Shown here one piece after another: positions 18,462 to 45,661 of a stretch of DNA of 64,000 bases; within the stretch, counting starts at the first letter, position 1; each line of letters begins with the position of its first letter. The position numbers were made by a program, and so were the translations under genes. Below the pieces are notes generated by a model. The model worked only from the letters and a program-made list of their open reading frames with translations, did no database searches and was not told the DNA's origin. This DNA is from Escherichia phage vB_EcoM_Goslar. Where the stretch lies: the sequence record NC_048170.1; one strand, written 5' to 3'.

Positions 18462-20510
18462 TTAAATACCCTTGGTTCCTTTCACGTGATGTGCGATTTC
18501 TTCAACCATTGCACGCAGAGCACGAAGCTGTTGGTCGTGTTCGTACCAACCACCTAACAGAACCCCGCTATACACCATGGTGTCAAGACTTAACAGTCCT
18601 TTATCTGATACGTTGATCATTTCAGGGAACTGTTCTTGAACACGCTGTGCGATAACACCGATCTTCTCGACATCAGGATCGTAGTTGTGACGGAAACGGG
18701 CAAGCCCACTGCGCGCCATTTCACGTAAACGTTCACTGAGAGATTCCGGATGATCTTTCAGATAACGAATGTCGTGTTTACTACGTTCATCCGAGCGAAT
18801 GTAAGCGTTAGGAACATCGATATTGCTGTTGAAGTACAGCGCACTACCACCGCCTGCAGAGTTCCCCCAATAGAAGCGTGTGATCTCACCGCCGCCATTT
18901 TCCGTGATGATAACATGTTTACCTAAACGCGTACCACCATTACCATCAACGAAGACCAGTTTGTTTCCGCTGTAAGAACCCCAGAACAAGCGTGTATCGA
19001 TGATGTGTGTTGCAGCGAGACGGGCGTTACGTGGTGTAGAATACACGGTGTTAACATCTTGCTGCGCATGTGCATCGGAAGCGATACCATAGTTCTGTAC
19101 GTTACCCAATCCCACCTGCGCTTTCGTAACAGCGTGAGGGTTATCCCGACGGTTAGCGTGAGCGTTAACCAGATCACCCGCTAATTTCTGAATTGCCCAG
19201 TTGGTAGACTGTGGTGTCATGTAACGGTTCGTTGCAGAACCACCTTGCGCTTCAGCTTGGTTAGCGGTTGGGTAGTTCTCAACACTTCCTAACCCTACTT
19301 GTGCTTTAGACACTTGGTGTGGGTTATTCTTGTCAGCGATATGCGCATTAAGCGGAACTAACGCAAAGGTCTCAATGGACGCTTTGGTTGTGTTCGGTGC
19401 CATTAATCGGTTAGCTGCAACACCGGCACGCGCTTCTTCTTCAGAAGCCATTGGGTAGTCTTGCACATTCCCCAACCCAACCTGCGCTTTGGTTACCCTG
19501 TGTGGGTTGTTGTAATCGGCTTTATGCGCATTAAGTGGGATCAATGCGAACTGTTCAATCGATGCAGCGGTGCGTAGCGGCGTCATGAAACGGTTGTTCG
19601 CTGTTCCGGCTTTCGCCTCTTCATCCGAAGCGGTCGGGAAGTTATCAACGTTCCCAAGGTTAACCTGTGCTTTGGTGACGCTATGTGGGTTATCCCGACG
19701 GTTAGCATGCGCGTCGACCAGATCACCCGCCAGTTTAGCAATCGCCCAGCCAACCGTCTGTGCGGTCATGTAGCGGTCAGGTGCAGTACCGGCTTCTGCC
19801 TCCGCCTTGTTTGCGGTAGGATAGTTCTGTACGTTACCTAGTCCGACTTGGGCTTTTGTTACTTCGTGTGGGTTATCGGTACGGTTAGCATGCGCGTAAT
19901 GCAGATCGGTCAGATCTTTATCCGCCGCTTGCATGTCTTTGCGTAGCTGATCGATTGCCGCCCAGAGACGGTTATCGGACGCAGCATCACCGATAAGTAT
20001 TGCGGCTTTTAACGAATAGATCGCTAAGCAAAGATGTTCGGTACCGTAAATAGCACTAACGTGGTGGATGTGTGGCTCAGGCGGATAAAGTTCCGGTTTG
20101 TTCTTGATGTCATCCCAGTTGATCGGACGATCGTCAAGTTTGAGTTCTTCGATAGCCTGATATAACGCGTCAATAAGACTTACGTAAACACCACCGATGA
20201 TACGATAGTCGTTAACTAACGTCCCCTCGATATCATCGTTGATAATGGCGATGGCTGCACAGATTTCTTTACCCGCGTAAAGCGTTGCATCCTGGTACAA
20301 GAAAATGGGTTTATAATCCACGCCTCGTACCAGTGTCTTACCGGTAAGCTTTTCAGTGATGACCAGACTTTCGGTGAAGAACGGTCCGCCATCAAGGGCG
20401 TAACATTTATTCTCGGTTCGTGGAACGGTATGCTCTTCACCAACGATGTGGTTGCTGGCGAGTGTACCGGTCCAGTCCTCGGGGTACTTCAGGGTAATTG
20501 GTGTCGACAT
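18462..20510 (-). CDS. tail fibre protein with repeat array and C-terminal peptidase-S74 chaperone domain
   Basis: At least six repeats of NPHxVTKAQVGLGNVxNY (about 40-aa period); C-terminal ~110 aa contain S-D-E-R-S-K fitting the S-D-x-x-x-K self-cleavage site of S74 domains. Confidence 0.7.
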   Translation of the reverse strand: MSTPITLKYPEDWTGTLASNHIVGEEHTVPRTENKCYALDGGPFFTESLVITEKLTGKTLVRGVDYKPIFLYQDATLYAGKEICAAIAIINDDIEGTLVNDYRIIGGVYVSLIDALYQAIEELKLDDRPINWDDIKNKPELYPPEPHIHHVSAIYGTEHLCLAIYSLKAAILIGDAASDNRLWAAIDQLRKDMQAADKDLTDLHYAHANRTDNPHEVTKAQVGLGNVQNYPTANKAEAEAGTAPDRYMTAQTVGWAIAKLAGDLVDAHANRRDNPHSVTKAQVNLGNVDNFPTASDEEAKAGTANNRFMTPLRTAASIEQFALIPLNAHKADYNNPHRVTKAQVGLGNVQDYPMASEEEARAGVAANRLMAPNTTKASIETFALVPLNAHIADKNNPHQVSKAQVGLGSVENYPTANQAEAQGGSATNRYMTPQSTNWAIQKLAGDLVNAHANRRDNPHAVTKAQVGLGNVQNYGIASDAHAQQDVNTVYSTPRNARLAATHIIDTRLFWGSYSGNKLVFVDGNGGTRLGKHVIITENGGGEITRFYWGNSAGGGSALYFNSNIDVPNAYIRSDERSKHDIRYLKDHPESLSERLREMARSGLARFRHNYDPDVEKIGVIAQRVQEQFPEMINVSDKGLLSLDTMVYSGVLLGGWYEHDQQLRALRAMVEEIAHHVKGTKGI
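18465..18800 (-). other. predicted S74 self-cleaving chaperone domain (C-terminus of the fibre)
   Basis: YIRS|DERSKHDIRYL with Ser and Lys spaced as in the endosialidase/T5 pb1-type chaperone domain. Confidence 0.55.
19040..19880 (-). repeat. in-frame coding repeat array (about 120-nt units) in the fibre gene
   Basis: Six to seven consecutive copies of the NPHxVTKAQVGLGNV unit with flanking Ala/Gly-rich linkers. Confidence 0.6.
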
Positions 20511-20523
20511 AACCTGGAGGTCC

Positions 20524-23127
20524 TTATAACGTGACTGTACCTAATTTGGTTGTCTTATTGAGATTAATGACAGAGATCTGGGTATCGCTGGTCGTAATCG
20601 TTCCGATATTAACGCGCTGTCCTTTATCATCTTCTTGCTTGTAGATGGTTAACTCCAGCTCTAACTGATTACCATTAGGAACAACGGAAACGTACCATGT
20701 TTTATTACCTGGTGAACTATTATAGTCTTTTAGGTTATAATGGCCTTTAGGTAAGGTCATGACCTTACCGGCAAACAAGCAAGTGATGTCTTCGTTGATG
20801 TAGATATCGTAACCGGAAGCAGCAACGACCGTAGAAACCATGTAACGGTTTTTAACAGCGAGAGCTTTATATTCCGCAACGGAATTACCGACAGCGTTAA
20901 AGACCTGCCCGCCATTACCCATCACCGTAGAGACTGCGGTATCAACATAACCGATTCCCCACACCGGATGCACGTTCCAGCGATAGCCGCTTGTCTGTAG
21001 GTAAGCATACATACCTTCAAATGCGATGGTTGTCCAGTTCCCATCGTTTTGTCGTCCAGCTCGGAACTGATAGGTGTTCTGGTTCCCTGCAGACTGACGG
21101 GAGTACGGAACATGTCCCGCAACAAGCCATCCATCACTAACCTTCTTGTAAGCTAATACACCCCAGGCAGCATCCTGACTACCGATATTTGTTGAATCGG
21201 GTTCTTCGACATAACCCAGCAATTTGGTTACGCCCGTCACCGTAATAGCGCCTTTACGCGCGGATACGGTAACCTCTGCAGCGATTCGTCCATGTACGCG
21301 TGTGCTGGTATTACAGCCAGCAACAAACAGGATACAGGGTGCGTTTGTACCATCTGGAGGCACTGCTAACGCATGTCGCCACTGACTTACCCCTGATAAC
21401 TTAGATCCTGTATATGCGTTCCACACAAGCTGACCGCCTGCCTGCAGATTCGCTGCGGTTATGCTGATGGCTTCACCGGATGGTGCAAGTTTGGTTGCAT
21501 CGTAACCGATTTTGCTTGTTAGGACCGCATCGGTTAAATAAGACCCGCTAACCACCGTATTGTCATCGCTTAAATGCACGGTTAGGAAAGGTAACGACAT
21601 TTGACCCGTTCTAACCACCACGTTGTTGGAAGGCGGAAAACCGTAAACATTAATACCCTCGCCCTGATAATGGTAATTGAGGTTCCAGTCATAGGTCACT
21701 AGACGAGCCTCAAAATTACCCTGTCCGCCAGCCGTACGCGAGTTAACAAAAACCTTGTTCTTAGAAAAGAAACCCAGGTAACCATGGGACGCGAGTGCAC
21801 CAACGACGCGATCCCCGACGCTTTTCCAGTTTGAATCGTACTGTCTTCCACCGGTCGGGCCGAGTTTGGCGAGTTCGTCGAACACGTTTCCAGAGAAACC
21901 ATTGATGGTGTACGATCTCGCTTGGGGGGCGGATAAGTTGTCGTTTTGGATAAGGGCTACCTGACCACGTTCGTTGATTTCGATATTCCCGGTACCGTTA
22001 CCCGAACCCCATTGCCAGAAACCATCGTTATATGCACTTGTCCCCTCCGTTGTGTTGGAAGGTCCTATCCAGTCAATACCGCTGCTGGTTGACGTGTAAG
22101 TCGATTGTCCAGCGCCTGGGTTCATGCTGTAACTGTTGTTGGCGGTTTCGAAATCCAGATAAAACTGATGCAGCCCATTTTTATTCTTGTTATTGCGGTT
22201 GTTCGTCCACCACGCCGAAGCAATCAGAATGCGTGCTTTAGTGCCTTTGGTTGCTGCAAGCAGACGAATCTGGGCACGCCAGACGATTTGACCGATCCCG
22301 TCAGAAGGGAAATCGTTCGCAGTTATGCGGTTGCAGACAATCATCTCGGCGCTGTTGCTTATTGCCGTTCCTTCTATCGTTCTACCGCTAATATTCGTAA
22401 GCTGTGTAGCTGCTACGCTGCCACCGCTGGGACCGATGGAAGATTTAGTTACGGTATAAACATTTAAGTAGAGTTTATAACTGTTAGTGCCAGCAATAGC
22501 GATGTAGATTTTACCGTTAATTTCCCAACAGCAGACATTCGGTGACGTATCAACAAAGTTGGCAAGACTACCATCGAGATACATGGCGACGTGTTTGGAT
22601 GCATCAAACGTTCCGTCTGTCAATGCGATAAACATTTTAGGGCTGCTACCGTCTTCAAAAGCAGCTTGACCTAACATGATACCGTTCTGGTGACAGTATA
22701 TCGCCGTAGGAATACGGTCGAGCGTCGCGGGTTCATAACGACGACTGGTTGGGATAACTTCGGTGATTTGCCCGTTTTGATCTGTTTTACAGATAACGTA
22801 GTAAACCCCTTTCTTTACGCTGTTTGTTGCTGAACGCAATAACACGATGGTACCGTCCGATTCACGACATACGCCGTAACGACGGTATCTGTCGTTTAGG
22901 GAGATAGCACCATCAGCGGAGCCTTCAATTGCCAGAGGAAAATAACTTTGGTCCCCAACCTGTTCGATATCGGTTACGCCAATATCGATGTATTTTTCCA
23001 TCTCGGCGTTGAACTCAGCGGTACTGTAGGCCCCAAGATCACTCGCTTTTAGTCCCGTTGGGTTGTCGCGACTGGCGATACGCGTAGTAACGCTACTCAC
23101 CAGTTCGCTGAACTTTTTCATTGCCAT
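20524..23127 (-). CDS. tail fibre or tail spike protein (receptor-binding candidate)
   Basis: 867-aa ORF inside the fibre module, Gly/Ser/Thr/Asn-rich beta-type composition; SD GAGGTG. Confidence 0.45.
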   Translation of the reverse strand: MAMKKFSELVSSVTTRIASRDNPTGLKASDLGAYSTAEFNAEMEKYIDIGVTDIEQVGDQSYFPLAIEGSADGAISLNDRYRRYGVCRESDGTIVLLRSATNSVKKGVYYVICKTDQNGQITEVIPTSRRYEPATLDRIPTAIYCHQNGIMLGQAAFEDGSSPKMFIALTDGTFDASKHVAMYLDGSLANFVDTSPNVCCWEINGKIYIAIAGTNSYKLYLNVYTVTKSSIGPSGGSVAATQLTNISGRTIEGTAISNSAEMIVCNRITANDFPSDGIGQIVWRAQIRLLAATKGTKARILIASAWWTNNRNNKNKNGLHQFYLDFETANNSYSMNPGAGQSTYTSTSSGIDWIGPSNTTEGTSAYNDGFWQWGSGNGTGNIEINERGQVALIQNDNLSAPQARSYTINGFSGNVFDELAKLGPTGGRQYDSNWKSVGDRVVGALASHGYLGFFSKNKVFVNSRTAGGQGNFEARLVTYDWNLNYHYQGEGINVYGFPPSNNVVVRTGQMSLPFLTVHLSDDNTVVSGSYLTDAVLTSKIGYDATKLAPSGEAISITAANLQAGGQLVWNAYTGSKLSGVSQWRHALAVPPDGTNAPCILFVAGCNTSTRVHGRIAAEVTVSARKGAITVTGVTKLLGYVEEPDSTNIGSQDAAWGVLAYKKVSDGWLVAGHVPYSRQSAGNQNTYQFRAGRQNDGNWTTIAFEGMYAYLQTSGYRWNVHPVWGIGYVDTAVSTVMGNGGQVFNAVGNSVAEYKALAVKNRYMVSTVVAASGYDIYINEDITCLFAGKVMTLPKGHYNLKDYNSSPGNKTWYVSVVPNGNQLELELTIYKQEDDKGQRVNIGTITTSDTQISVINLNKTTKLGTVTL

Positions 23128-24196: not shown

Positions 24197-26350
24197 TTAT
24201 AACGTTTCGAAGTCGGTTGCTTTGATAACCGCGTTGAAGTTGGCAAGGAATTCCTTAAGCAGTGCTTGGAAGACATCACGAAACGCTGTGTTCGTCTGCA
24301 AGCTGGTTAAATAATCGTTCTTAAGGTAATCGCTCAGCTTACCGATCTTCTGCATCTTCTCGCCGTCTTGGTTCTCTCCAGGTTCTTGGCTGTTGATGTT
24401 AACCCATTTGATCCCTTCGAGATCGCCATCGGCAAGGAAGTTGGCGGGTGTCTCATCGTCGTTCAGGATTTTAATCGTATCACTGGATTCAATGCCACCG
24501 TAAGCTTCCAGAAGCTGGTTGACTGTTAGCTTATTGGTGTTGATTGAACCATTGACACCATCGATACCGATGCCTGCACCTGTGATGGATGTCGCCGAAA
24601 GATCGATCGGTCCGGTTAACTTACCACCGTTGATCGGTAACGCACCAACTTGCTCAGCGGTGTGTGTATGGTCAGCTAACGCCGCAAACGCCACGATAGA
24701 CTTATATGTCGAATACGGCGTCATATACGCTGATTGGTTGGTGTTGTCAGCCGCTTCAGTATCGGTAGCGATATTAAAGTTCTGCACGTTGCTGAGACCG
24801 ACCTGCACCTTCGTTACTTCATGCGGGTTGTTCTTATTGACAACGTGTGCTGCAAAACCATCACCAGCTAAAGCAGTGATTGCCGCTTTTGTCGCAGCCG
24901 GTGTCATATAGCGGTTGGTTGCTTCACCCGTTTGCGCCTCTTCGTCGGAAGCAACAGGATAGTTCTCAACGCTTCCCAAACCGACCTGAGATTTTGTTAC
25001 TTGGTGTGGGTTTTCGGTATTCGCAATATGACTACTGAACCCTTGACCCGCCAGTTGCTCGATTGCGTAACGAACAAGTATTGGTGTCATGTACTTGTTG
25101 TTAACTTGACCATCGATAGCTTCTTGGGTGGTGGCAACCCCGAAGTTTTGCACGCTCCCCAACCCAACTTGCGCTTTCGTAACAGCGTGGGGGTTATTGG
25201 TGTTACCGATGTGATCGGTAACCGTTGGGGTGATTAATCCTGCGATAGCGGCTGCCGTGGTCGCAGGGGTCATGTATTTATCGTTAGCAACACCCGCAGC
25301 AGCTTCTACGTTAGATGCTACACCGTAGTTCAATACATTTCCTAACCCAACCTGCGCCTTGGTTACCCCGTGGGGGTTGTTCTTGTCTCCGGTATGGGTT
25401 GTCAACGTAGCGTTAACGTTATCGATACGCGTGCTTAAGCTATCAGTGATTGCTTTGATTGCGGCTCGTACACCCGCTGGTGTTGTGTACAGATCTGTGG
25501 CCGTACCGGTAATGGTTGTATTACTATCGGCTACACCGTAGTTCTCAACGTTTCCGAGTCCCACCTGGGCTTTCGTTACCTTGTGTGGGTTGTTGTAGTT
25601 GCTGATGTGCGCAGCAGCACTATCACCACTCAGGTTAGCGATCATCTTACGCGTCATCGCCAACGTCATGTACAGATTTTCACCGATGGTTTCCAGATCG
25701 CTCTCGGTCGCCGTTGTGAAGTTCTGAACATTTCCTAACCCAACCTGCGCCTTGGTTACCCCGTGGGGGTTATCGCGACGATTCTCGTGCTGCAGCAATG
25801 CAGTCATTGCTTTATTGAACCCTTCTTCAAGCGGTTCTTTCAATGATTCGATTGCAGCCACCACATCGTCCCACGTCATTGTGTCGGTTTCGACATTATG
25901 TTGGTGGTTGATTGGCGGGAATACGGAAGGAACGTCAGCAACCTTTTCCCAGAACGTAACGCGAGGGTCGTAAAGGTTGTTGGCTAAAACGTTAAGAATT
26001 TGTTGTTGATCAAGTGTAAACTCACCCCCCAGTGAATAGTAGTTCAGTTGCAACTGTCCACTGAATGCGGTGTCCAACAGCATGATGGAACCGTATAATT
26101 CCAGGCCGGTCAGCGCAGCCATGGCACGGAAGGGGTGAGTGCATAAAAAGTCAACGCCTTCTTCCAGATACGCGTTTGTTTCAGGGTTGTAGATCTTTAA
26201 CCCATTGCGAAAATATGGCGCGTATTTAGGAACGAGAAAGTTAAATCCGGTCCCCGTGGAAGGACGGACAGTGACGAGTTCTTCTGGAACCCATGCGCCA
26301 TCCAAATTCCCCTGCGGGTTATACGGAAGGCGTTTAATTTCATCTGTCAT
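24197..26350 (-). CDS. tail fibre protein with repeat array
   Basis: At least eight repeats of NPHxVTKAQVGLGNVxN between residues ~190 and 540; C-terminal domain differs from the S74-containing fibre. Confidence 0.65.
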   Translation of the reverse strand: MTDEIKRLPYNPQGNLDGAWVPEELVTVRPSTGTGFNFLVPKYAPYFRNGLKIYNPETNAYLEEGVDFLCTHPFRAMAALTGLELYGSIMLLDTAFSGQLQLNYYSLGGEFTLDQQQILNVLANNLYDPRVTFWEKVADVPSVFPPINHQHNVETDTMTWDDVVAAIESLKEPLEEGFNKAMTALLQHENRRDNPHGVTKAQVGLGNVQNFTTATESDLETIGENLYMTLAMTRKMIANLSGDSAAAHISNYNNPHKVTKAQVGLGNVENYGVADSNTTITGTATDLYTTPAGVRAAIKAITDSLSTRIDNVNATLTTHTGDKNNPHGVTKAQVGLGNVLNYGVASNVEAAAGVANDKYMTPATTAAAIAGLITPTVTDHIGNTNNPHAVTKAQVGLGSVQNFGVATTQEAIDGQVNNKYMTPILVRYAIEQLAGQGFSSHIANTENPHQVTKSQVGLGSVENYPVASDEEAQTGEATNRYMTPAATKAAITALAGDGFAAHVVNKNNPHEVTKVQVGLSNVQNFNIATDTEAADNTNQSAYMTPYSTYKSIVAFAALADHTHTAEQVGALPINGGKLTGPIDLSATSITGAGIGIDGVNGSINTNKLTVNQLLEAYGGIESSDTIKILNDDETPANFLADGDLEGIKWVNINSQEPGENQDGEKMQKIGKLSDYLKNDYLTSLQTNTAFRDVFQALLKEFLANFNAVIKATDFETL
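24730..25780 (-). repeat. in-frame coding repeat array in the second fibre gene
   Basis: Same repeat family as 19040..19880. Confidence 0.6.
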
Positions 26351-33904: not shown

Positions 33905-36814
33905 ATGAACGATATAAATAAAGGGCGCGTCGCCCTCGAACGTCAAATGAGCAATAATGACGTTGCGAAGGCACTCATGAACAAATTTGTCGCTCCTGCT
34001 CCGCAGTCACGTCTTTATAACACACGTGATGCGGAAGGAGCGAACGGTCGTTTCGGGTTAGTTGTTCCCGACCAAATGACGATGAACACGGTTACGCGTG
34101 CGACCGCGACAAACATCGAGGATAATAAAAACATCCTCGAGTTGTTCCCTGAACTTAAACGCGTGATGCAGATCTATGTTGCCGCGTTGACGAACCCTAA
34201 CGATCTTAAGACGGTCGAGATGTTTATCGACAGCGAAGATTTCCCCGGCAGAGTCGCAGAAATCGTTCAGCCGATGATCGATACCATCGACACGCATTTT
34301 AAGAATATCTATAAAATAAAGACGCTTATCCCTCGTATCATCGAAGACGTCTTCTTTATCAAGGGCAGTTATAACTTCGTTGTTCTGCCAGAAAGCACGC
34401 TCGACCGCGCCATTAATGGTAACGGTCAACTGAAACTTGAAGAATACGGTTTTAAAGACAACCATTTTGCAAGCTGGGGACTTTTAGGTAACGACAGTCG
34501 CAAACGCCACGAAAATCAATTACCTGCGACGGTTTCGATGGAAGATTATTTCTCAGGCGTTAATGAAACCATACCGTACGATCCTGTTGTTCGCATAGAC
34601 AGCATTAAATTTACCAATACCCTGCTTCGTGATAAGGACGGTAAATTCATTGAAGCGAAGATCGATATTCCGGATATGGTTACGGTTGTCGATAACCCGG
34701 ATATCCTCCGCATGCCTATTCTGCATCAACGTCGAGCAGCGACAGCAGTGCAGCGTGCGTTACGTGCAAACACGTTAGGAGGTAGTGGTTTGGTAACGCT
34801 GTCAGGTGATCCGACCCTAACCGCTAACCGACGTGAGCTGACGCAAGAGCAGGTTAACGAGATCTGGAATAAACTCAACATCCAGCGTCACACCAAGGTA
34901 TCTCCCGTTTACGCGTTGGCAACCCCAGATACACTCGATCGTCAAAGCGTCGGTCATCCTGGTGTGATGCACGTACCACCTGAGGCATTAGAACCTGTAC
35001 ATGCGCCGGGTGATCCGGAGAACCATATCGGATATTTGGTTCAGTTGGATGAGTTTGGTTATCCGGTGCGTTTGGTTGAAGATGCTGCGTATTACAAGCA
35101 GTTGGAAGGTCGGTTGTCGAAGATCACTGCAGATATCGCGGGCACGTCAAGCAACGGCATGGCGAGCGAGATGATTGGTGCAGCCAAGAACATGATCCAA
35201 GGTACGTCATGTAATCAGGTAGACATGTCGGCCTTCGTATCGTCGTACGAATCGCTGATGCAACGTTACATTGTCGAACGTATCGTTAACGGTTATCTTG
35301 GCAGTGCGGTGGAGATCGGTGCGACATCATCGTTTTATCTGTCGATGCTTGCCCGTAGCCTCGCTCACAAGCAGACCCGTGTTTTGTTTATTCCTCGAGA
35401 GATGGTGACTTACATCGCCTATGAATACAACAAATACGGTATCGGTCGTTCGCTGCTTGAAAGTACGAAGATGATCTCGTCGCAACGAGCCATGCTCATG
35501 GTTCAAGAACTGATGGCAAAAATCAAAAGTTCGTTGAACTATACGACGCTAAGCGTAATGCTTGAAGACACCGACAGAAACCCGGTCGATACCGTCGAAC
35601 AAGCACTGCATAGTTTCGCTCGTGTCTACCAGTCTGGTTTCCCGTTGGGTGAAACTAACCCGATGGATATCATCAACGCGTATGAACGAAGCTCGATTCG
35701 ATTGAAGGTTGAGGGGAATAACCCACGCTTCCCGAAATTGAATACAGACGTCAGTGTTGAGCAGCGTAACTATCAGTCTCCTGATAATGAGCTGATGGAT
35801 CGTTACCGTCGTGACCATTTCATGGGCTTGGGTGTGTCTCCGGAGATTATCGATACTTCCTACCAATCTGAATTCGCAGCTTCTGTGATTACAGCTAACG
35901 CGATGCAAGAGAAACAGTTCACGGTTTGTCGTGAGGTGATCACGAATGGATTATCGGACCACATCAAGAAATATACGGCATACAGTCCCGTGTTGTTGAC
36001 GTCGTTACGAAACACGGTTCGTGCGAACATGTCTAAGCTTTCCCAGGCACAATTGAAGCAGCTTTTTGGTAGCGATTTCGAAAACGGTGTTATCCGTAAC
36101 GTTAACGCCTATCAGGAGATTGACGACCAATCAGCAACAATGGATCTGGATTACACTAAACCAGAAGTCCAGGAAGTTATTGCCGATGCTTATGTGTCCA
36201 TGTTCTTAAACAGCCTGCGTGTGCGTTTACCGGATAGCAATGCTCGTCGCCTTGAAGATCAGGTACGTGAATATAATCAGTACAAGGAAGCGATTACTGC
36301 GCAACTTGATGATTATTTAACGCCTGATTACGTCATGGGTCTGGGTGGGGTTGATGAAACAACGCTGCAGATGATCCGCGCATGCATTATTGGTACCGCG
36401 ATGCGTACGTGGGCAAAAGAGAACAACTTCAATCAGGAGCTGGCTGATCTCTTCAGTCTTGACGATAAGAAGAATGCCGTGCAAGATTGGAAACGTATGT
36501 CCATGGAACATATTGAAGTCATGGGTAAATGCATGGGTGATTTTGCATTGTATATTCAGAATCTGACGAAGAAGATTGAAGAGAAGATGGGAGCTCAAGC
36601 ACAGGACGGTAGCGTTTCATCTGATGGTTCGTGGTCATCCGATTCAAGTAGCGATACCGGTTCTTCTGATGACTTCGGTGGCGGTGACGATTTCGGAGAT
36701 ACCGATTTCGATACCGAAACGATGGAGGAAACCTCAACAGAAGAAACAACCACATCTGAGGAAACGACTACCGACACAACGTCAGAAGACGACACTTCAG
36801 GTGGCGTTGTCTAA
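33905..36814 (+). CDS. large hypothetical virion-type protein with acidic S/T/D/E-rich C-terminal tail (portal is one guess)
   Basis: 969-aa ORF, ATG with AAGGAG SD; C-terminal ~70 aa low-complexity acidic (SSDSSSDTGSSDDFGGGDDFGDTDFDTE...). Confidence 0.45.
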   Translation: MNDINKGRVALERQMSNNDVAKALMNKFVAPAPQSRLYNTRDAEGANGRFGLVVPDQMTMNTVTRATATNIEDNKNILELFPELKRVMQIYVAALTNPNDLKTVEMFIDSEDFPGRVAEIVQPMIDTIDTHFKNIYKIKTLIPRIIEDVFFIKGSYNFVVLPESTLDRAINGNGQLKLEEYGFKDNHFASWGLLGNDSRKRHENQLPATVSMEDYFSGVNETIPYDPVVRIDSIKFTNTLLRDKDGKFIEAKIDIPDMVTVVDNPDILRMPILHQRRAATAVQRALRANTLGGSGLVTLSGDPTLTANRRELTQEQVNEIWNKLNIQRHTKVSPVYALATPDTLDRQSVGHPGVMHVPPEALEPVHAPGDPENHIGYLVQLDEFGYPVRLVEDAAYYKQLEGRLSKITADIAGTSSNGMASEMIGAAKNMIQGTSCNQVDMSAFVSSYESLMQRYIVERIVNGYLGSAVEIGATSSFYLSMLARSLAHKQTRVLFIPREMVTYIAYEYNKYGIGRSLLESTKMISSQRAMLMVQELMAKIKSSLNYTTLSVMLEDTDRNPVDTVEQALHSFARVYQSGFPLGETNPMDIINAYERSSIRLKVEGNNPRFPKLNTDVSVEQRNYQSPDNELMDRYRRDHFMGLGVSPEIIDTSYQSEFAASVITANAMQEKQFTVCREVITNGLSDHIKKYTAYSPVLLTSLRNTVRANMSKLSQAQLKQLFGSDFENGVIRNVNAYQEIDDQSATMDLDYTKPEVQEVIADAYVSMFLNSLRVRLPDSNARRLEDQVREYNQYKEAITAQLDDYLTPDYVMGLGGVDETTLQMIRACIIGTAMRTWAKENNFNQELADLFSLDDKKNAVQDWKRMSMEHIEVMGKCMGDFALYIQNLTKKIEEKMGAQAQDGSVSSDGSWSSDSSSDTGSSDDFGGGDDFGDTDFDTETMEETSTEETTTSEETTTDTTSEDDTSGGVV

Positions 36815-37234: not shown

Positions 37235-39793
37235 TTACTGCTCTTCACGTTCCAGCAGATACTCGGAAGCGGTAATACCGTTTACCGTACGTACTGCTTT
37301 CAGACGAGTATCATCACTCAGAATCACGGTAACAGATTGCAGACCTTTTACTTTGGTTTCGAAGGTCTTGAACACCTGATCCAGCATACGAGCAATGCTT
37401 GGGTTGGTTGCAGCCGATGCGTGGGTGTAACCGCTTTGGTTCAGCTTCAGAATCTTGGCGTTGGTCGGTACGCGAACAACAACATGCGGACGCATCGCGA
37501 ATACGCTGTGATTGAACCAGTAAGCGTCGTTACTATCTTCGTCGGTAACGATGTCTGGATTAACACGCATATCCTCGACAGCCGCATCCGCCAAACGACG
37601 TTCGATTTCATCGGCGTCCAGAGAGCCATCTTTCTCCAGTTCTGCACGATACTCACTCATGGCAACCAGATGACGTTCACGATTCGCTGCGGATTTTTCG
37701 TGAGCGGCTTTCAGGTAGTCATGCATGTTGTACAGTTCTGCCATGGAAAGACGAATGTTCCACTGACCTTCGCCATCGCGATTGCAGTAGAGACACTTCA
37801 GCATGTTGACCCAGGTATAGTAGCAATTGGCGAATTCATCTTCAATGAACTTCTGGTCCATTTTAAGATCGTGAATCAGCCAACCGGACAGTTCTCCGAT
37901 ATCATCAACGAAGCTAGAGATGGTGGTTTCAGAGAAGTTCTTCGGTACGATACGTTTGATCAGCTTATTGACGTCTTTGGTCATGCTATCGTTCAGGAAA
38001 TGCCAGATACGCAGAGGAATGACATCTCGATACTGTTGCATGATCTGACGATAAGCTTTGATATCGTCGCTACGACCTTTATCAATAGACAACGCATCCA
38101 GGAATTCATGGATTGCATCCAGCTCTTTGTCGGTATAGGTTCCCAGATAGGAATTGACGGTGGCCAGGAATGCTAATGCGTCGTTTTGGTTGACGTCGGT
38201 GTTGGTCTGCTGAATGATCGCCACTGCAGCTTTAGTTTCAGCATCCTCAACGCTTGACGCTGCGATCGCGTCGGTGACGGTAAACAGTTTCATTTCGCGC
38301 TGCTCACCGACAACGATTGGCTCACGCTGAACCGGCTTGTTAAGACTAACGCGAACAACTTCTGCTTGCGCGATACGATCCAGTTTTGCCATTTCCTGCT
38401 CTGCCATACGACGAGCGGTTGGATCTGATTCAAGTTCGATGTATTCCACTTCTTCCTCCGTGAGGGATGTAATGTCAACAATGGTTTCATGAAGAATTCC
38501 GTTTTCGTCGATACGTGCTCGACGAGCGAAGTGCCTGAAGTCATACAACGTCGGCCAACGACTATTAGGTGCAAAGTCTTTGGCTTTCAGACGCATCTGC
38601 ATAAATTCTTCATGTTGAACAACACGACCGTAACGCTTAGCATCTTCGGTCGCATCAATTGGATTAACGGTCTTTGTTGCCGTAGCGGAACGAGCCGTAC
38701 GAACCGGTTCCGGTTTCACCTGCGCCGGTTCAGGTTGAACGGGTTTCTGCTGTCCAGCCTTAACATGCCATTCTGGCTCTTCGTACTGTTCAGCAAATTG
38801 CTCAGCCGCTGCAAAGATATCGTTGATACCACCAATATCTCCTTCAGGATTTGTCGAGTAAATCCGTGGTTGCGGTGCCTCGTAACGCGGCGCTGTAGCA
38901 GCAGGTGCCTCATCAACGATAGGATCATCATCACCGACATCATACAAACGGTTGAACGCACAATCCTTCGAATCAATGTACGATGGTGTTTGTGGTTGGA
39001 CAACCGTAGGCCGAGGTTGTGTGCCGTATCCTGGTGTTGTTGGAGCCATACCACGCATAACTGCTGGGTTAGGTTGGTATTGTGGTTGTGGGTAGGTTCC
39101 ACCATACATGGCGTACGCAGGCTGTTGTGGTTGACCATACCCGTTGCTAACCATCGCACTTGCTTGCGGCCCACGATAAGTCATCCCCATCTGCATCACC
39201 TGCTGCTTCAAACCACGTGACTTCTGCGCGATTTGCGCTAGGCTTCCGCTTTTATTCAGCTGCGTGTACTTATTCGCGGCTTCCGGGTTAATGCGTGATA
39301 ATTCAATCGCGCGATAATATTCCGGGTACTGATTCGGTTCAAAGAGCCACGTTACAAGATGATACAGCGCAACTGTACTCACGGCAGCAGAGACGATCTG
39401 GTCGTCGGACGCGTTCTGTGGCATCGGGTTGATGTAAGAGAACACGTTCCAACAACAGTCTTCAACAAGCGATTCCATCATCATATCGTTATTGGTATAA
39501 CGTGCGACGAACTCGGTTTGTATTTTGTCTTGCTGAGCGAAGTCTTTCAGGACATTAAAGATGGCTTGACGGATTTTGACGATCGTCGCTTCTTGGGTGA
39601 TGAAGTTATAGTTCTGCTGATATGAGGGTTGTTGGTATTGTGGTGGTTGATAGGCGTTATTCGGGTATGCGCCGTACGGCGATTGCTGATACTGTTGCTG
39701 ACGAACCTGTTCAGCCGCATAATTAATCGTGCTCGTATAAGGGTTTTCGCTATAGCCCATTTGTTGATACATGTTGTTACTGCCATTATACAT
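37235..39793 (-). CDS. large hypothetical protein with Q/Y/P/G-rich low-complexity segments
   Basis: 852-aa ORF, SD AAAGGA; N-terminal YQQSPYGAYPNNAYQPPQYQQPSYQQNY and internal GYGQPQQPAYAMYGGTYPQPQYQPNP. Confidence 0.5.
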   Translation of the reverse strand: MYNGSNNMYQQMGYSENPYTSTINYAAEQVRQQQYQQSPYGAYPNNAYQPPQYQQPSYQQNYNFITQEATIVKIRQAIFNVLKDFAQQDKIQTEFVARYTNNDMMMESLVEDCCWNVFSYINPMPQNASDDQIVSAAVSTVALYHLVTWLFEPNQYPEYYRAIELSRINPEAANKYTQLNKSGSLAQIAQKSRGLKQQVMQMGMTYRGPQASAMVSNGYGQPQQPAYAMYGGTYPQPQYQPNPAVMRGMAPTTPGYGTQPRPTVVQPQTPSYIDSKDCAFNRLYDVGDDDPIVDEAPAATAPRYEAPQPRIYSTNPEGDIGGINDIFAAAEQFAEQYEEPEWHVKAGQQKPVQPEPAQVKPEPVRTARSATATKTVNPIDATEDAKRYGRVVQHEEFMQMRLKAKDFAPNSRWPTLYDFRHFARRARIDENGILHETIVDITSLTEEEVEYIELESDPTARRMAEQEMAKLDRIAQAEVVRVSLNKPVQREPIVVGEQREMKLFTVTDAIAASSVEDAETKAAVAIIQQTNTDVNQNDALAFLATVNSYLGTYTDKELDAIHEFLDALSIDKGRSDDIKAYRQIMQQYRDVIPLRIWHFLNDSMTKDVNKLIKRIVPKNFSETTISSFVDDIGELSGWLIHDLKMDQKFIEDEFANCYYTWVNMLKCLYCNRDGEGQWNIRLSMAELYNMHDYLKAAHEKSAANRERHLVAMSEYRAELEKDGSLDADEIERRLADAAVEDMRVNPDIVTDEDSNDAYWFNHSVFAMRPHVVVRVPTNAKILKLNQSGYTHASAATNPSIARMLDQVFKTFETKVKGLQSVTVILSDDTRLKAVRTVNGITASEYLLEREEQ

Positions 39794-39827
39794 TTCTTAC
39801 GATCCTTTTTATTTATTCGGTTATGTG

Positions 39828-41624
39828 TCAATCGATTATGTCGCGATCGTTAATTTCTACAATTTCTTCATCGAATCGACCGACGTCTTTCTTCAAGCCT
39901 GCATTGGTTGCTGCAACGTCATTTGCAATTTGTGGGGTAATGATTAACCGACCGCGCTCATCGATAGGTGCGTACATACTGAACTTCTGACGTCCGGTTG
40001 GTTCGGAGTGTGGAAGATTCAGATAGCTTGCACAGAACGGGATGGAACCACTAACCAAACGACTCTCGTCAGCCAATGCAGCACCGCCTGCGTTTTGGCT
40101 CTGGAGAACAACATGCGTGCTCACTTTGAACAGCATGCAATCACCAGGTGACTGAATCGATGTTGCCACTTTCTCACGTTTATCACGATTGCTCTGGATA
40201 TTGAGAATCGCTTCCGTTGCAACTTGATTTCGCAACGCCTTCTGTACATCGCGATTGGTCATCTCTTTACGGTTGTTCTGTCGTTTACCACGTTCTGTGG
40301 TTTTAAGATGGAACCCCAGTTTAAAGATGCTCTTACGCACATCCTCCATGACATATTCCAACACCATCAATTCCTTACCGAACATCGTCGTGGTATCAAC
40401 ACGACTCATTTCGATAGTGACATTGTCAATCAGATACGCCATAAATTCGTAGAAGTCGTCGCAAGGAATATTTTCCTGTTTGAACTTCTTCTGTTGAATC
40501 TCGTCAACGTAAAGATCGAGACTGTCGATGTGGTGGTTTACATCACGCAACAAACGCGCATCCGCATTGTTGTTATTAAAGATAATCAAACCGAGTAATG
40601 TACGCCAATGGTCTGGCGCATTCGCGAACTCCTCAACCGGATAGTCTTCCGGAAAACGATCGTAATAACGGTCGATGAGATACAAGAATGCACCGACAAG
40701 GCCAAGAACAATACGTTCCGTGCCTCCACGTCTTACAGCAATTTGAATATCAGGATGTTTGTAACGTACAGCGCTAGCGCTACGGCTTTTACCGCTTTTG
40801 CTGATACTAAAGCCTTTAGGAATAACCCCCATGGTGCGATAGATTACCCATTGGTCACGCGGAAAATCACGTTCAGCAAGGTTCCGTCCGGTTACGGCTT
40901 CGACACCTGCAAAACGTCGGAAACACTCACCCACCCCGTACTTCGCAAAGAGATAGTGACCCAGTGTGGTTACGCTGGTGTGGTTGATGTTGTCACCGTT
41001 CACTTTACTTTGTTTAGTAAGATGATAGATTTGCGACCAGGGTAATGACAGGTAATGACGATAATCGATACCGGTCGGTGTATCATTGCTCAGGAACTGA
41101 TACGGTGTACGTTTAACCGTGATTTTGTCACGCGGAAGCATGATGAACGCCATGTCTTTCGTGTAACTGATTACGGGGTCAGCGAGTACCGCACTGAGAA
41201 TGAAGTTCGCACCACGTAGACGCATTTTACCACCCTGACCTACCGCGGGCAATAGGAGAGGATGTCGGATAATGCAGTAGTCCTTTCCTGGTTCACGACG
41301 GTCACCTGATTCCATCGCGCCGTACCAGCGGAATTCCAGCATCACCATAAACACATCGGAAGGCGCAAGGTCGAAGGTCAGCTTACCGCTATCCTTCCCT
41401 TTGGTTTTCTTTCCTCCGCTTAAGTAGTGGAACTGTTCGCGGGCCATACAACGACGCAGGCCATGATACACCAGATCCTTAGGTAAACTATCTTTGCTGT
41501 TCCGCCAAAGACGATCAACATAGGACTCAACATCTTGCATCTTATCGACGACGATGTTGCGTGCTATCTTCTCGTTCATCTTCGGTGCAAGCTCAGCGAC
41601 AGCTTTGCAGAATCTAGGATCCAT
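39828..41624 (-). CDS. hypothetical protein
   Basis: About 598-aa ORF; track start is GTG, adjacent ATG at 41622-41624 has SD AAAGGAG. Confidence 0.5.
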   Translation of the reverse strand: MDPRFCKAVAELAPKMNEKIARNIVVDKMQDVESYVDRLWRNSKDSLPKDLVYHGLRRCMAREQFHYLSGGKKTKGKDSGKLTFDLAPSDVFMVMLEFRWYGAMESGDRREPGKDYCIIRHPLLLPAVGQGGKMRLRGANFILSAVLADPVISYTKDMAFIMLPRDKITVKRTPYQFLSNDTPTGIDYRHYLSLPWSQIYHLTKQSKVNGDNINHTSVTTLGHYLFAKYGVGECFRRFAGVEAVTGRNLAERDFPRDQWVIYRTMGVIPKGFSISKSGKSRSASAVRYKHPDIQIAVRRGGTERIVLGLVGAFLYLIDRYYDRFPEDYPVEEFANAPDHWRTLLGLIIFNNNNADARLLRDVNHHIDSLDLYVDEIQQKKFKQENIPCDDFYEFMAYLIDNVTIEMSRVDTTTMFGKELMVLEYVMEDVRKSIFKLGFHLKTTERGKRQNNRKEMTNRDVQKALRNQVATEAILNIQSNRDKREKVATSIQSPGDCMLFKVSTHVVLQSQNAGGAALADESRLVSGSIPFCASYLNLPHSEPTGRQKFSMYAPIDERGRLIITPQIANDVAATNAGLKKDVGRFDEEIVEINDRDIID

Positions 41625-41663
41625 CACACACTCCTTTCAGAAAGTTGCTTAAGCAGATTAAAG

Positions 41664-43438: not shown

Positions 43439-45661
43439 TCAGTTAGTCTGAACCGGCAGCTTGATGTTTTCAGTGTAGACCTTACGCAGGTTCACAACGT
43501 TAATCAGACCCAGCAGCGGGCAGTTGTTAACGAAGCGGCAGCGCGGCTGAACCATGGTTTCTTTAGAAACCTGACCGTTACGGGTAACCTGAGCAACAGA
43601 TACCAGTTCCGGTACATACAGGAACATACCGAAGGTCAGCGGATCCGGAGAACCCTGGATACCACGAGACAGGGTCACGAAGATCTTATCGCGCAGCATG
43701 ACGTTCGGGTTATCTACAACCACGAAGTTGAAGCTTACACCAACGGTACGGAAATCGCCATCGGTCTGCAGGAACTGCGGGATGTAGTTGTCAGTTGCTA
43801 CTACGCAACGCGGTTTCTCATCAGCGTTGGAAGACAGCAGCTGCAGAGCTGGCTGATAACCAGACTCGGAGTACATGCGGTATGCCATCTCACGAATCAC
43901 GTTCATGATCGCAGCAGACACTTCAGCACGACGTTCTGCAGTGGTGGTACCCTGAACAGATTTCTCCAGGTCCAGATTGATTTCTTCGAACCACGGACGG
44001 ATCAGGTAACGACCGAAACCTTCGATCTGGATGTCACCGAACTGACGGAAGCGAGAGGTCGCAACCGCTTTCAGTGCGTCTTTGTAGCTGAACAGTTTCT
44101 CAACCATCAGGTTGTCGAAACGTGCGTTAGCAGCTTGGATCAGAACGTCCAGGTCAGCAGCGTTTTCTTCCCAATCCAGCGGACGAGGAATGGAGAACGG
44201 AGCCAGCAGGCCGATTGCGTAACGTTCTTGCTTCATGTTGAAGTCAAGGTGCTTACCGCGCTCACGACGGTTGCTGTTGTTACGACGGATACGCAGTTCG
44301 TAACCAACCAGTTTGAAGCTCAGGTCTTCAGCCAGTTGTTTGAACTCTTCGCTCTTACGCGGTTGTTCGATGTTGTCCTGATCAACCAGGCGATACAGTT
44401 CAGCGTTAGCGCCGTTAACACGCAGACCCGCTTTCTCTACGTTGGAAGAACCGTAAACTTCGATCGCCAGCTGAGCAGCGGATTTCGCATCGATGATGTC
44501 CTGCAGCGCTTCGGCTTTCGCACCTTTAACGTCTTTGGTGTTCTCATCAACGAAGATGGAGTGGGTGTCGAACGCCAGGGTCATTTTGCGGAAGTCGCCT
44601 TCCAGGGATTTCTGGAAACCGTTGGTGATCAGACCAGATACGTCGAACGGTACGTAAGAGGTTTTGCTGTGCTTGGTAGATTTGATTTCCACCAGGATTT
44701 TGGTCAGCGTGATCTGAGCATCCAGCGCGTCGGTGTTGTCGCTGTAACCGTTAGCCAGAATGCTGTCGTCTTCAGCGATACCGATCATGTCGATCAGTTT
44801 ATCAACAGCCAGGTAAGACGTTTTATAAGTTACGCCTTTAATTTCGATGTCGCGCGGAGCAACGATAGCTTTGTCAACGAAGTACTGCGCGTTAGCATCG
44901 TCAGCACGATAGATCGGATGCAGATCGGTCACGTCGTTGGACAGAACGTCGTTATACATGAACGCATCCAGCAGCGGACGACGTACCCAATCAGCCGGAG
45001 TACCGTCAGCGTTACGACGCAGGTGGTTGAACACCAGCGGACGACGGAAAGATACGTCGTAACCGATCTGGTTCGGAGCCAGAACGATGGTGTTGTACAG
45101 TTCGTTACCCATGCGGCTCAGACGAGAAGCCTTCACGTTGAACACGACGGAGTACGGCATCATGTCACGCAGTTCTTTCTGGTCGTAGGACAGCTGAACC
45201 AGTTCTTCAGATTCGCAACCGCAGGAATCAGCAGCCATCATGACGAAGTTAGAGCTGTCAACTTCACGACCTGACGGAGTGGTGCTGATGTTCATGGAAC
45301 GTGCTTGTTTAGCATATTCTACCGGGTTGCCATGAGCCAGCATGATCAGTGCTGCTGCACGAGCCTGCTGTGCGTTCATGGTGAACAGCTGTTCTTCAAT
45401 ACGCTGCTTCTCTTCCGGAGTGGTGGTTTCGAAGCCCAGCAAGGTCAGAACCGGTTCTTCGGCTTTACGGATGTCGCTGCTGAAGCTCTTAACATCCATT
45501 TCGTTAACCAGTTTGTCCATGGATTTGAAATCAACCTTAGAAGCAGATTCCATAGACAGGAAGGTGTTCTCCAGACCTTTGTCTGCTGGTTTGCTACCAT
45601 TAGCGGTCAGGAACTGGCGAGTGGCCGCGACCTGTTGGCTAAGAAGGGTTTTATCATTCAT
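43439..45661 (-). CDS. putative major capsid protein (jumbo-phage-like size); tail sheath not excluded
   Basis: 740 aa; strongest optimal-codon bias in the window; SD AAGGA 9 nt upstream; own promoter-like and terminator elements; N-terminal ~160 aa contain S/A/G-x-E motifs (SME, GFE) of the kind cleaved by prohead proteases. Confidence 0.35.
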   Translation of the reverse strand: MNDKTLLSQQVAATRQFLTANGSKPADKGLENTFLSMESASKVDFKSMDKLVNEMDVKSFSSDIRKAEEPVLTLLGFETTTPEEKQRIEEQLFTMNAQQARAAALIMLAHGNPVEYAKQARSMNISTTPSGREVDSSNFVMMAADSCGCESEELVQLSYDQKELRDMMPYSVVFNVKASRLSRMGNELYNTIVLAPNQIGYDVSFRRPLVFNHLRRNADGTPADWVRRPLLDAFMYNDVLSNDVTDLHPIYRADDANAQYFVDKAIVAPRDIEIKGVTYKTSYLAVDKLIDMIGIAEDDSILANGYSDNTDALDAQITLTKILVEIKSTKHSKTSYVPFDVSGLITNGFQKSLEGDFRKMTLAFDTHSIFVDENTKDVKGAKAEALQDIIDAKSAAQLAIEVYGSSNVEKAGLRVNGANAELYRLVDQDNIEQPRKSEEFKQLAEDLSFKLVGYELRIRRNNSNRRERGKHLDFNMKQERYAIGLLAPFSIPRPLDWEENAADLDVLIQAANARFDNLMVEKLFSYKDALKAVATSRFRQFGDIQIEGFGRYLIRPWFEEINLDLEKSVQGTTTAERRAEVSAAIMNVIREMAYRMYSESGYQPALQLLSSNADEKPRCVVATDNYIPQFLQTDGDFRTVGVSFNFVVVDNPNVMLRDKIFVTLSRGIQGSPDPLTFGMFLYVPELVSVAQVTRNGQVSKETMVQPRCRFVNNCPLLGLINVVNLRKVYTENIKLPVQTN

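Follow-up and report, generated by a model that had tools for sequence, protein, structure and literature searches.

We examined an 852-residue protein encoded in a stretch of 64,000 nucleotides (nt) of Escherichia phage vB_EcoM_Goslar (NC_048170.1; the whole stretch is hereafter called the window), which an original prediction had singled out for an N-terminus and an internal stretch rich in Gln, Tyr, Pro and Gly (Q/Y/P/G). We are highly confident that the open reading frame (ORF) encodes an early protein of the JADA / phiKZ gp124 family, and the window belongs to a diverged phiKZ-like jumbo phage. The protein is a very diverged ortholog of this known family and no orphan, and its internal low-complexity segment (residues 206–270) is the first part of the disordered linker described for JADA. 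New with respect to the studied JADA proteins are the tyrosine-rich arms (i.e. the N-terminal low-complexity tail and the internal segment), the 62-residue tail, an insertion of ~81 residues, and an N-terminal domain that sequence does not link to the rest of the family. Both low-complexity segments are under purifying selection, and a cohesive or clustering role of the arms is plausible.

Relationship to the JADA family

phiKZ gp124 is the ortholog of JADA (Pa36 gp316), an activator of the Avs5 defence (Mol Cell 2026, PMC12931631). The position of the JADA gene after the gp123-type RNA polymerase subunit gene is invariant, and the protein is laid out as an N-terminal domain (residues 1–170), a disordered or flexible region (170–270) and a C-terminal domain (270–721); the latter forms a ring-like homodimer (cryo-EM, PDB 9RP3; mass photometry, Pa36), has a fold without structural relatives outside jumbo phages, and is enough on its own to activate Avs5 (PMC12931631). 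JADA is required for normal growth of nucleus-forming jumbo phages, phiKZ gp124 is an early non-virion protein that is among the most abundant at 10 min, and a fluorescent JADA fusion, diffuse in uninfected cells, gathers upon infection in foci at the early infection (EPI) vesicles, the forerunners of the replication compartment (PMC12931631). Antisense depletion of phiKZ gp124 led to fewer plaques and strongly altered phage transcription at 30 min (PMC12571901).

In the window, 34 nt separate the gene from the phiKZ gp123 ortholog upstream of it on the same strand, which is the position that defines JADA genes and which gp124 occupies in phiKZ. Pairwise BLASTP with the positional orthologs gave no significant match; the link to the family needed profiles and structure. 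We built hhalign profiles from four groups of positional orthologs, and the clade of the window protein matched the phiKZ group with 98.5% probability over the full length. Compared without the low-complexity parts, its C-terminal domain matched that of the phiKZ family with 97.9% (E 3.3e-13, 239 columns) and that of the LucasX family with 97.4%. The best PHROG match of the isolated C-terminal domain was phrog_15010, the gp124 family (E 0.002, collinear), and the joint alignment contained the collinear motifs DGxVxE, EY(I/L)xxExDPxxRR, RxTxxxN, IxxFxxDxxxL and a C-terminal xxDGxxL...G. A Foldseek search of the AlphaFold model against the PDB recovered 9rp3_B (E 1.8e-9, probability 1.00, template modelling (TM) score for the target 0.51, 467 columns); 9rp3 was the sole significant match, the second-ranked one having an E-value of 0.8. 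The same model had 14 significant matches in BFVD, all of them 640–980 amino acids (aa) long, and those with a name came from jumbo phages (Erwinia, Aeromonas, Vibrio, Klebsiella) or from an uncultured myovirus. The architecture is also that of JADA, with a helical N-terminal domain, a long disordered linker that is charge-poor and of low complexity in the same place, and a larger C-terminal domain.

The differences from JADA of phiKZ and Pa36 are nevertheless considerable. The window protein is only 12–19% identical, was not seen by BLAST, phmmer, tblastn or full-length PHROG scans, and is 131 residues longer, with an extra Tyr/Gln tail of 62 residues at the N-terminus and the ~81-residue insertion in the C-terminal domain; its linker is Tyr/Gln/Pro-rich, whereas that of phiKZ is Gly/Met/Pro/Gln-rich, and its N-terminal domain has no detectable sequence similarity. 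The insertion, counted relative to the phiKZ type, is present in the window protein and in two relatives, P0005 and P0008, and absent in the orthologs of phiKZ, Erwinia and Xanthomonas phages; only the window protein and P0005 have residues in columns 355–470 of the alignment. By analogy with its orthologs, the protein may form a closed ring-like homodimer through its C-terminal domain, be abundant early, gather in foci at EPI vesicles and be required for phage transcription to run its normal course. Recognition of this C-terminal domain by Avs5 is uncertain, because of the insertion and the low identity; since the C-terminal domain is the part sensed by Avs5, the insertion could affect immune recognition.

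Two other groups of orthologs are of particular use for comparison. The Agricanvirus-type orthologs (Erwinia RAY gp4 and AH06 gp3, Salmonella SA002, Proteus phage 10; phrog_11639) have the same gene position, a similar length (827–892 aa), a Gln-rich N-terminal tail and an uncharged linker, and RAY is drawn as a JADA locus in a published figure (PMC12931631). They differ in that their arms are Gln/Met/Pro-rich with few tyrosines, and in that their hhalign match to the window clade is weaker (96.6% over the full length, 61% for the C-terminal domain alone). The Xanthomonas-phage orthologs (LucasX_288, RTH11 and Xoo-sp14_124; located at L001:12318-14402, L018:11089-13152 and L012:1562-3709) share the synteny and belong to the family whose C-terminal domain is matched with 97.4% probability, but their linkers are Gly/Arg/Tyr-rich (RGG-like), Gly/Asn/Arg/Trp-rich, or Arg/Asp-rich with 53% charged residues.

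Close relatives are few. A word-indexed protein search gave only four, at 80–99% identity and one of them on a 238-kb contig, its candidate list having probably been flooded by low-complexity words, and a scan of IMG/VR gave two near-identical loci; P0005 and P0008 are 38–39% identical over the C-terminal part. An exhaustive HMMER search with residues 270–852 added only one further relative, P0005. We consider family-size counts from the word-indexed search unreliable for this family, because the C-terminal domain of gp124 used as query returned neither gp124 itself nor a near-identical protein; a search with the 16-sequence family alignment returned only 4 proteins. No match was obtained in the PHROGs scan of the full-length protein, in 50,697 phage records searched with the protein (tblastn) and with 15 kb of DNA (megablast), or in the phmmer search against PDB sequences even at E 10, and the Xoo-sp14 protein was the only ortholog that phmmer found directly with the window protein. 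A Pfam match of the full protein to Cas9_C_2 was judged spurious (18.6 bits vs a cut-off of 27). FLC9 gp81, which lies next to the portal gene in Burkholderia phage FLC9, was dropped as an ortholog, as it has neither the JADA architecture nor a low-complexity region.

Composition, disorder and constraint of the arms

The two segments noted in the original prediction are real. YQQSPYGAYPNNAYQPPQYQQPSYQQNY corresponds to residues 35–62 of the protein and GYGQPQQPAYAMYGGTYPQPQYQPNPAVMRGMAPTTPGYGTQP to residues 218–260, and the sliding-window composition of both segments was 60–78% Q/Y/P/G/N with 3–7% charged residues, versus 24% charged in the whole protein. The richest 40 residues reached 78% Q/Y/P/G/N, a value that none of 2000 shuffles of the protein attained (shuffle maximum 62.5%). 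It also placed the protein outside the other long ORFs: of the 50 ORFs in the window that do not overlap and have 120 aa or more, the runner-up reached 50% (mean 37%, sd 8.6%). Given the window-wide frequency of 23%, the counts were likewise far from expectation in residues 9–62 (38 of 54; binomial P 3e-13) and in residues 203–270 (41 of 68; binomial P 8e-11). Tandem Repeats Finder detected no tandem repeat in the DNA of the ORF; this is therefore a compositional bias, and recent repeat expansion or slippage is ruled out as its source. Two ORFs on the opposite strand (37337–38176 and 38489–39220) were considered shadows, as it is the minus-strand frame that has homologs, finds a match in the structure search and evolves with a ratio of nonsynonymous to synonymous substitution (dN/dS) far below 1.

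By composition the segments are prion-like and rich in Tyr, Gln and Pro, without being strict Q/N domains. The original observation is thus confirmed with one qualification: the segments are charge-poor and the tail resembles the Sup35 N domain, but Q+N counts reached a maximum of 26 in 80 residues, where the classical criterion for Q/N-rich domains asks for at least 30. With reference sequences entered by hand, the composition of the N-terminal tail correlated with Sup35 N at r = 0.87 and with FUS at 0.61, that of the internal segment at 0.58 and 0.54, respectively, and that of the folded domains at −0.21 to 0.36. The tyrosines of the tail were evenly spaced (sd of gaps 1.72 vs 3.84 in shuffles, P = 0.005), while those of the internal segment were spaced nearly as in shuffles (5.42 vs 6.15, P = 0.41). 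The likeness to Sup35 N and FUS comprises the Q, Y, G, P and N composition, the 3–5% of charged residues and, in the tail, the evenly spaced tyrosines. FUS also shares the pentapeptides YGAYP, GYGTQ, QQPSY and YGQPQ with the window protein, which reflects composition and not ancestry. There is no homology, and the segments of the window protein are much shorter (62 and 65 residues vs 123 and 214) and contain more proline.

Disorder was assessed with an AlphaFold monomer model of the protein, made from a 16-sequence alignment that included gp124-type sequences, in which the predicted local distance difference test score (pLDDT) served as a proxy for intrinsic disorder. The pLDDT was below 50 at residues 1–54 and 207–380 (25–34 across 1–50 and 211–380), and these regions are predicted to be disordered, which supports the original interpretation. 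Between them the model contained a helical domain at residues 56–201, and a folded domain at 381–852 followed. A model of the N-terminal domain alone had a pLDDT of 72.5 and a predicted TM score of 0.70. The linker is ~175 residues long, and its first 65 residues are the Q/Y/P/G-rich segment. A short helix was predicted at residues 324–335, inside the peptide DIGGINDIFAAAEQFAEQYEEPEW (residues 319–342; positions 38768–38839 of the window), which is kept as DTGMQDLYNLAERFAVEEEDPMW in P0005, a relative whose C-terminal part is 38% identical. This peptide is a candidate short binding motif within an otherwise disordered acidic linker.

A low-complexity stretch followed the N-terminal domain in every ortholog that we examined, with a composition specific to each lineage. 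The least-charged 60 residues contained at most 5% charged residues in 24 of the 27 orthologs, in most of them directly behind the N-terminal domain with a usual start near residue 165, and so low a charge was reached in at most 2 of 300 shuffles; the exceptions were the three Xanthomonas-phage proteins. The linker is Q/Y/P/G-rich in the clade of the window protein, G/M/P/Q in phiKZ, G/A/V in Noxifer, S/N/Q/G in 201phi2-1, Q/M/A/P in Psa21 and D6, Q/M/P in the Erwinia, Salmonella and Proteus phages, and N/Q/G/Y in the metagenomic P0011, while it is G/R/Y/S (RGG/Tyr-type) in LucasX, G/N/R/W in RTH11 and R/D/G in Xoo-sp14. Gln-rich N-terminal tails were also found in Psa21, D6, RAY, AH06, SA002, SNUABM_37 and Proteus phage 10, and the phiKZ group has a separate conserved linker peptide, ETDLP(I/V)P. 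In the deposited genome of PhiPA3 (HQ630627, L019:2180-4290), the JADA ortholog is split: frame 0 covers the N-terminal domain and runs into the linker (annotated as gp140), frame +1 contains the remaining linker and the whole C-terminal domain, and the 'gp141' of the annotation is read from the other strand of this DNA. An error in sequencing, a genuine split or a frameshift could account for this arrangement.

Such segments had been called unusual in phage proteins. This is true within the window, but not of the JADA family, nearly all members of which have such a linker, nor of the phage group, in which the N/G-rich tail of ChmC is required for condensates in vitro (NAR 2024, PMC11077065). 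ChmC (PhiPA3 gp61 / phiKZ gp67), a protein associated with the phage nucleus, resembles the window protein in that an oligomeric folded core is combined with a charge-poor disordered region, and it belongs to the same chimallivirus group. It differs in its unrelated Whirly tetramer fold, in the C-terminal location of its N/G-rich stretch of ~40 residues, which is followed by an acidic cluster, and in that it binds RNA (PMC11077065).

Finally, we compared the gene with that of an 89%-identical relative (L005:6001-8592), and the dN/dS of each region is given in Table 1. Synonymous divergence (dS) was 1.5 in the tail, 1.1 in the N-terminal domain, 0.89 and 0.36 in the two parts of the linker, and 0.11 in the C-terminal domain. 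With dS of 0.9–1.5 across the tail, the N-terminal domain and the internal segment, these regions had ample opportunity for change. Every tyrosine of both segments was invariant in the five sequences of the clade, and the length of the tail varied among close relatives (a 14-column indel in P0003 and P0004). The drop in dS along the gene, together with a C-terminal domain 100% identical in protein to that of P0003 and an N-terminal domain only 76% identical, points to a mosaic gene with a recombination breakpoint in the disordered linker.

Genomic neighbourhood

The 599-aa product of the upstream gene matched phiKZ gp123 over its full length (BLASTP 2e-57). An AAGGA ribosome-binding site lies at 39807–39803, 9 nt upstream of the start codon of the ORF; we found no convincing promoter or terminator in the 34-nt spacer, and scans around the gene remained at chance level. 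The ORF and the RNA polymerase subunit gene that precedes it probably share a transcript.

Table 1. Regions of the 852-aa protein and adjoining features, with positions in the window and dN/dS against the 89%-identical relative.
Feature	Residues	Position	Strand	dN/dS	Basis or composition
Upstream gene, 599 aa, phiKZ gp123 ortholog (non-virion RNA polymerase beta-type subunit)		39828..41627	(-)		phrog_2943, E 7e-120
Spacer of 34 nt, RNA polymerase subunit gene to ORF		39794..39827	(-)		Read from the sequence
Whole ORF, diverged JADA / phiKZ gp124 ortholog	1–852	37235..39793	(-)		ATG start, 852 aa and stop codon
N-terminal low-complexity tail	1–62	39608..39793	(-)	0.10	Q 23%, Y 19%, N 13%, P 10%; charged 5%
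Helical N-terminal domain	63–205	39179..39607	(-)	0.16	Helices in both AlphaFold models
Internal low-complexity segment	206–270	38984..39178	(-)	0.09	P 19%, Q 15%, G 13%, Y 10%; charged 4%
Second (acidic) linker part	271–380	38654..38983	(-)	0.15	Acidic, Pro/Ala-rich; pLDDT <50 apart from the helix
C-terminal domain with JADA fold	381–852	37238..38653	(-)	0.03	hhalign, Foldseek, phrog_15010
Helical insertion in the C-terminal domain	~668–760	37514..37792	(-)		Predicted helices 676–687, 691–721, 727–744
Small downstream ORF, 91 aa		36898..37173	(-)		Synteny only; matches the small ORF after JADA

The order of capsid gene, ORF, RNA polymerase subunit gene, large ORF and small ORF was common to LucasX, AH06, RAY, phiKZ and the P0005 contig. 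In the window, the major capsid protein gene (43439–45661) is of the phiKZ type, and the portal gene (33905–36814, plus strand) encodes a protein ~28–30% identical to the portals of Xanthomonas phage LucasX and of Erwinia phages. A counterpart of the small ORF follows JADA in LucasX, AH06, RAY and the P0005 locus, and the portal gene comes directly after it in these genomes, while in phiKZ three genes intervene. The 480-aa ORF showed no similarity to phiKZ gp122, so that this part of the synteny is positional only.

Two further observations were made in the surroundings. The C-terminus of the portal (~36587–36811) is a tail of ~75 residues that is extremely acidic and rich in Ser, Thr, Asp and Glu (…SSDGSWSSDSSSDTGSSDDFGGGDDFGDTDFDTETMEETSTEETTTSEETTTDTTSEDD…), i.e. 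a second and quite different low-complexity region close to the ORF. In addition, three large neighbouring genes on the minus strand (18462–20510, 20524–23127 and 24197–26350) have repeated domains in common: the first and the third match phrog_2163 and phrog_13857 (tail or virion structural) in 4–6 separate stretches, phrog_3573 links all three, and together they look like a paralogous set of tail-fibre-like genes.

Possible roles of the arms

We propose, with a probability of roughly 0.4 for the statement as a whole, that the arms are weakly cohesive, multivalent tethers that strengthen JADA foci after recruitment. A JADA dimer would carry four nearly uncharged, tyrosine-studded disordered arms, which would not aggregate spontaneously. 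The folded domains would first be recruited to the EPI vesicle or the nascent nucleus, and tyrosine-mediated contacts between arms, or between an arm and a partner, would then increase the concentration there, keeping JADA together with its cargo in one focus. Such a cohesive role would be reflected in the purifying selection that acts on the arms and in the avoidance of charge throughout the family, and the tail of ChmC is a precedent, in the same phage group, for a low-complexity region that is required for condensates in vitro (PMC11077065).

Several points weigh against this proposal. The cohesion of the arms is inferred from their composition, which varies from lineage to lineage: tyrosines are common in the window protein, P0011 and LucasX, but most lineages have Met, Gln and Gly, and the linkers of the Xanthomonas-phage group are Arg-rich or highly charged, so that selection may act on disorder and length only. 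The JADA fusion is diffuse without infection, so that the arms do not drive assembly on their own at that level of expression. The internal segment is Pro-rich and has no special tyrosine spacing, which fits an inert spacer as well, and the frame change in the PhiPA3 linker, if real, means that the two domains can work untethered. The structural basis is of moderate confidence (mean pLDDT 56; 60–85 in the C-terminal domain). Moreover, the N-terminal domain matched every other family with at most 1% probability in hhalign, merged profiles included, whereas the N-terminal domains of the other families find one another at 93–96%. In BFVD, the N-terminal domain model had JADA-like jumbo-phage proteins as its first matches (9 of the top 20), with Foldseek probabilities of 0.5–0.99 and TM scores of 0.38–0.52, but at non-significant E-values (0.06–1.4).

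The main rival is that the protein is a JADA ortholog with passive arms, a flexible and non-sticky spacer plus a tail that set the reach between the domains, whose composition would be mutational drift under a requirement for disorder. We hold this to be doubtful, yet a serious competitor. It agrees with the published description of simply a long disordered or flexible linker (PMC12931631), with an arm composition that is replaced entirely from one lineage to the next while position and rough length persist, with the 19% Pro and the lack of aromatic patterning in the internal segment, with the diffuse state of JADA expressed alone, and with the shift of frame in the PhiPA3 linker as deposited. 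Inert spacers, however, usually have many charged residues and Ser, while 24 of 27 orthologs have almost no charge here, with Tyr or Met enriched; a dN/dS of ~0.1 at near-saturated synonymous divergence, with invariant tyrosines, amounts to constraint on the sequence beyond mere disorder, and the even tyrosine spacing of the tail would be unexpected. Alternatively, the tail and the linker could be docking platforms, in which short linear motifs (e.g. Tyr/Pro-rich peptides, or the conserved acidic helix at 319–342) bind specific host or phage partners without self-association. The conservation of DIGGINDIFAAAEQFAEQYEEPEW down to relatives 38% identical in the C-terminal part, the linker peptide of the phiKZ group and the purifying selection on the arms would suit this idea, and phiKZ gp124 reportedly binds the host proteins DnaX and FtsZ (Van den Bossche et al. 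2014, as cited elsewhere). Those partners are affinity-purification matches in another phage, known second-hand; the Q/Y/P/G-rich parts hold no peptide that is conserved beyond the immediate clade, and a host-specific motif leaves the family-wide absence of charge unexplained. On balance, docking as the function of the arms seems improbable.

More specific roles found less support. A nucleoporin-like phase that would selectively gate the passage of mRNA or protein at the EPI vesicle or the nuclear shell is brought to mind by charge-poor, aromatic-studded disordered arms on a ring-shaped dimer, by the location of the orthologs at the EPI vesicle and by the shift in phage transcript levels upon knock-down; it is very unlikely, because nothing places JADA in a shell or pore, JADA is distinct from PicA, the known import factor, and from ChmB and ChmC, which associate with the shell, the aromatic residue is Tyr in a Q/P context and not part of Phe-Gly repeats, and the composition is too variable between lineages for a single sieve chemistry. 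The original prediction had also considered assembly of an internal body or scaffold, which may be read as a virion or ejected protein that would assemble within the capsid by means of its low-complexity parts. The gene does lie between the portal and major capsid genes, and phiKZ-like heads contain an inner body. Yet the phiKZ record carries no structural note for gp124, unlike gp119, gp127–130 and others nearby, the early expression and abundance of gp124 do not fit a virion protein, and JADA is cytoplasmic with foci at the EPI vesicle; a virion role can hardly be upheld. Equally little speaks for a true amyloid-forming prion domain that switches heritable or self-templating states: the correlation with Sup35 N and the charge-poor, Q/N/Y-rich composition would allow it, but the Q+N count is too low, 10–19% proline and evenly spaced tyrosines disfavour amyloid under the rules for prion-like domains, and it is hard to see what a protein of a lytic phage, acting within minutes, would gain from a templated state. 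Altogether, the segments, their predicted disorder, their constraint and the EPI-vesicle foci of the family support the original interpretation in part; the protein is of a known kind, and a role in the virion is unlikely.

JADA belongs to the small set of proteins known to act in the vesicle stage, the earliest one, of infection by nucleus-forming phages, and the window extends its family to a clade beyond the reach of ordinary sequence searches. A charge-poor low-complexity region beside the N-terminal domain is a trait of almost every ortholog that published work has left undiscussed, and the terms low-complexity, phase separation, condensate and prion are all unused in the paper on JADA (PMC12931631). 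If the arms were inert, the protein would be an ordinary diverged ortholog with a floppy linker. If they are weakly cohesive tethers, the 'disordered linker' becomes a testable hypothesis on how JADA forms foci, for which Tyr-rich, Met-rich, Gly-rich and Arg-rich arms are available as natural variants. A bolder version, which we regard as unlikely but worth stating, is that the charge-poor arms supply the cohesion of a condensate built by the phage, with dimeric JADA being nucleated at the EPI vesicle upon infection. [quoted passage not shown] Such a condensate would explain the abundance of the protein, the infection-dependent foci and the transcription defect upon knock-down, and the rapid turnover of the arms, together with the breakpoint inside the gene, would represent host-by-host tuning apart from the immune-sensed C-terminal domain.

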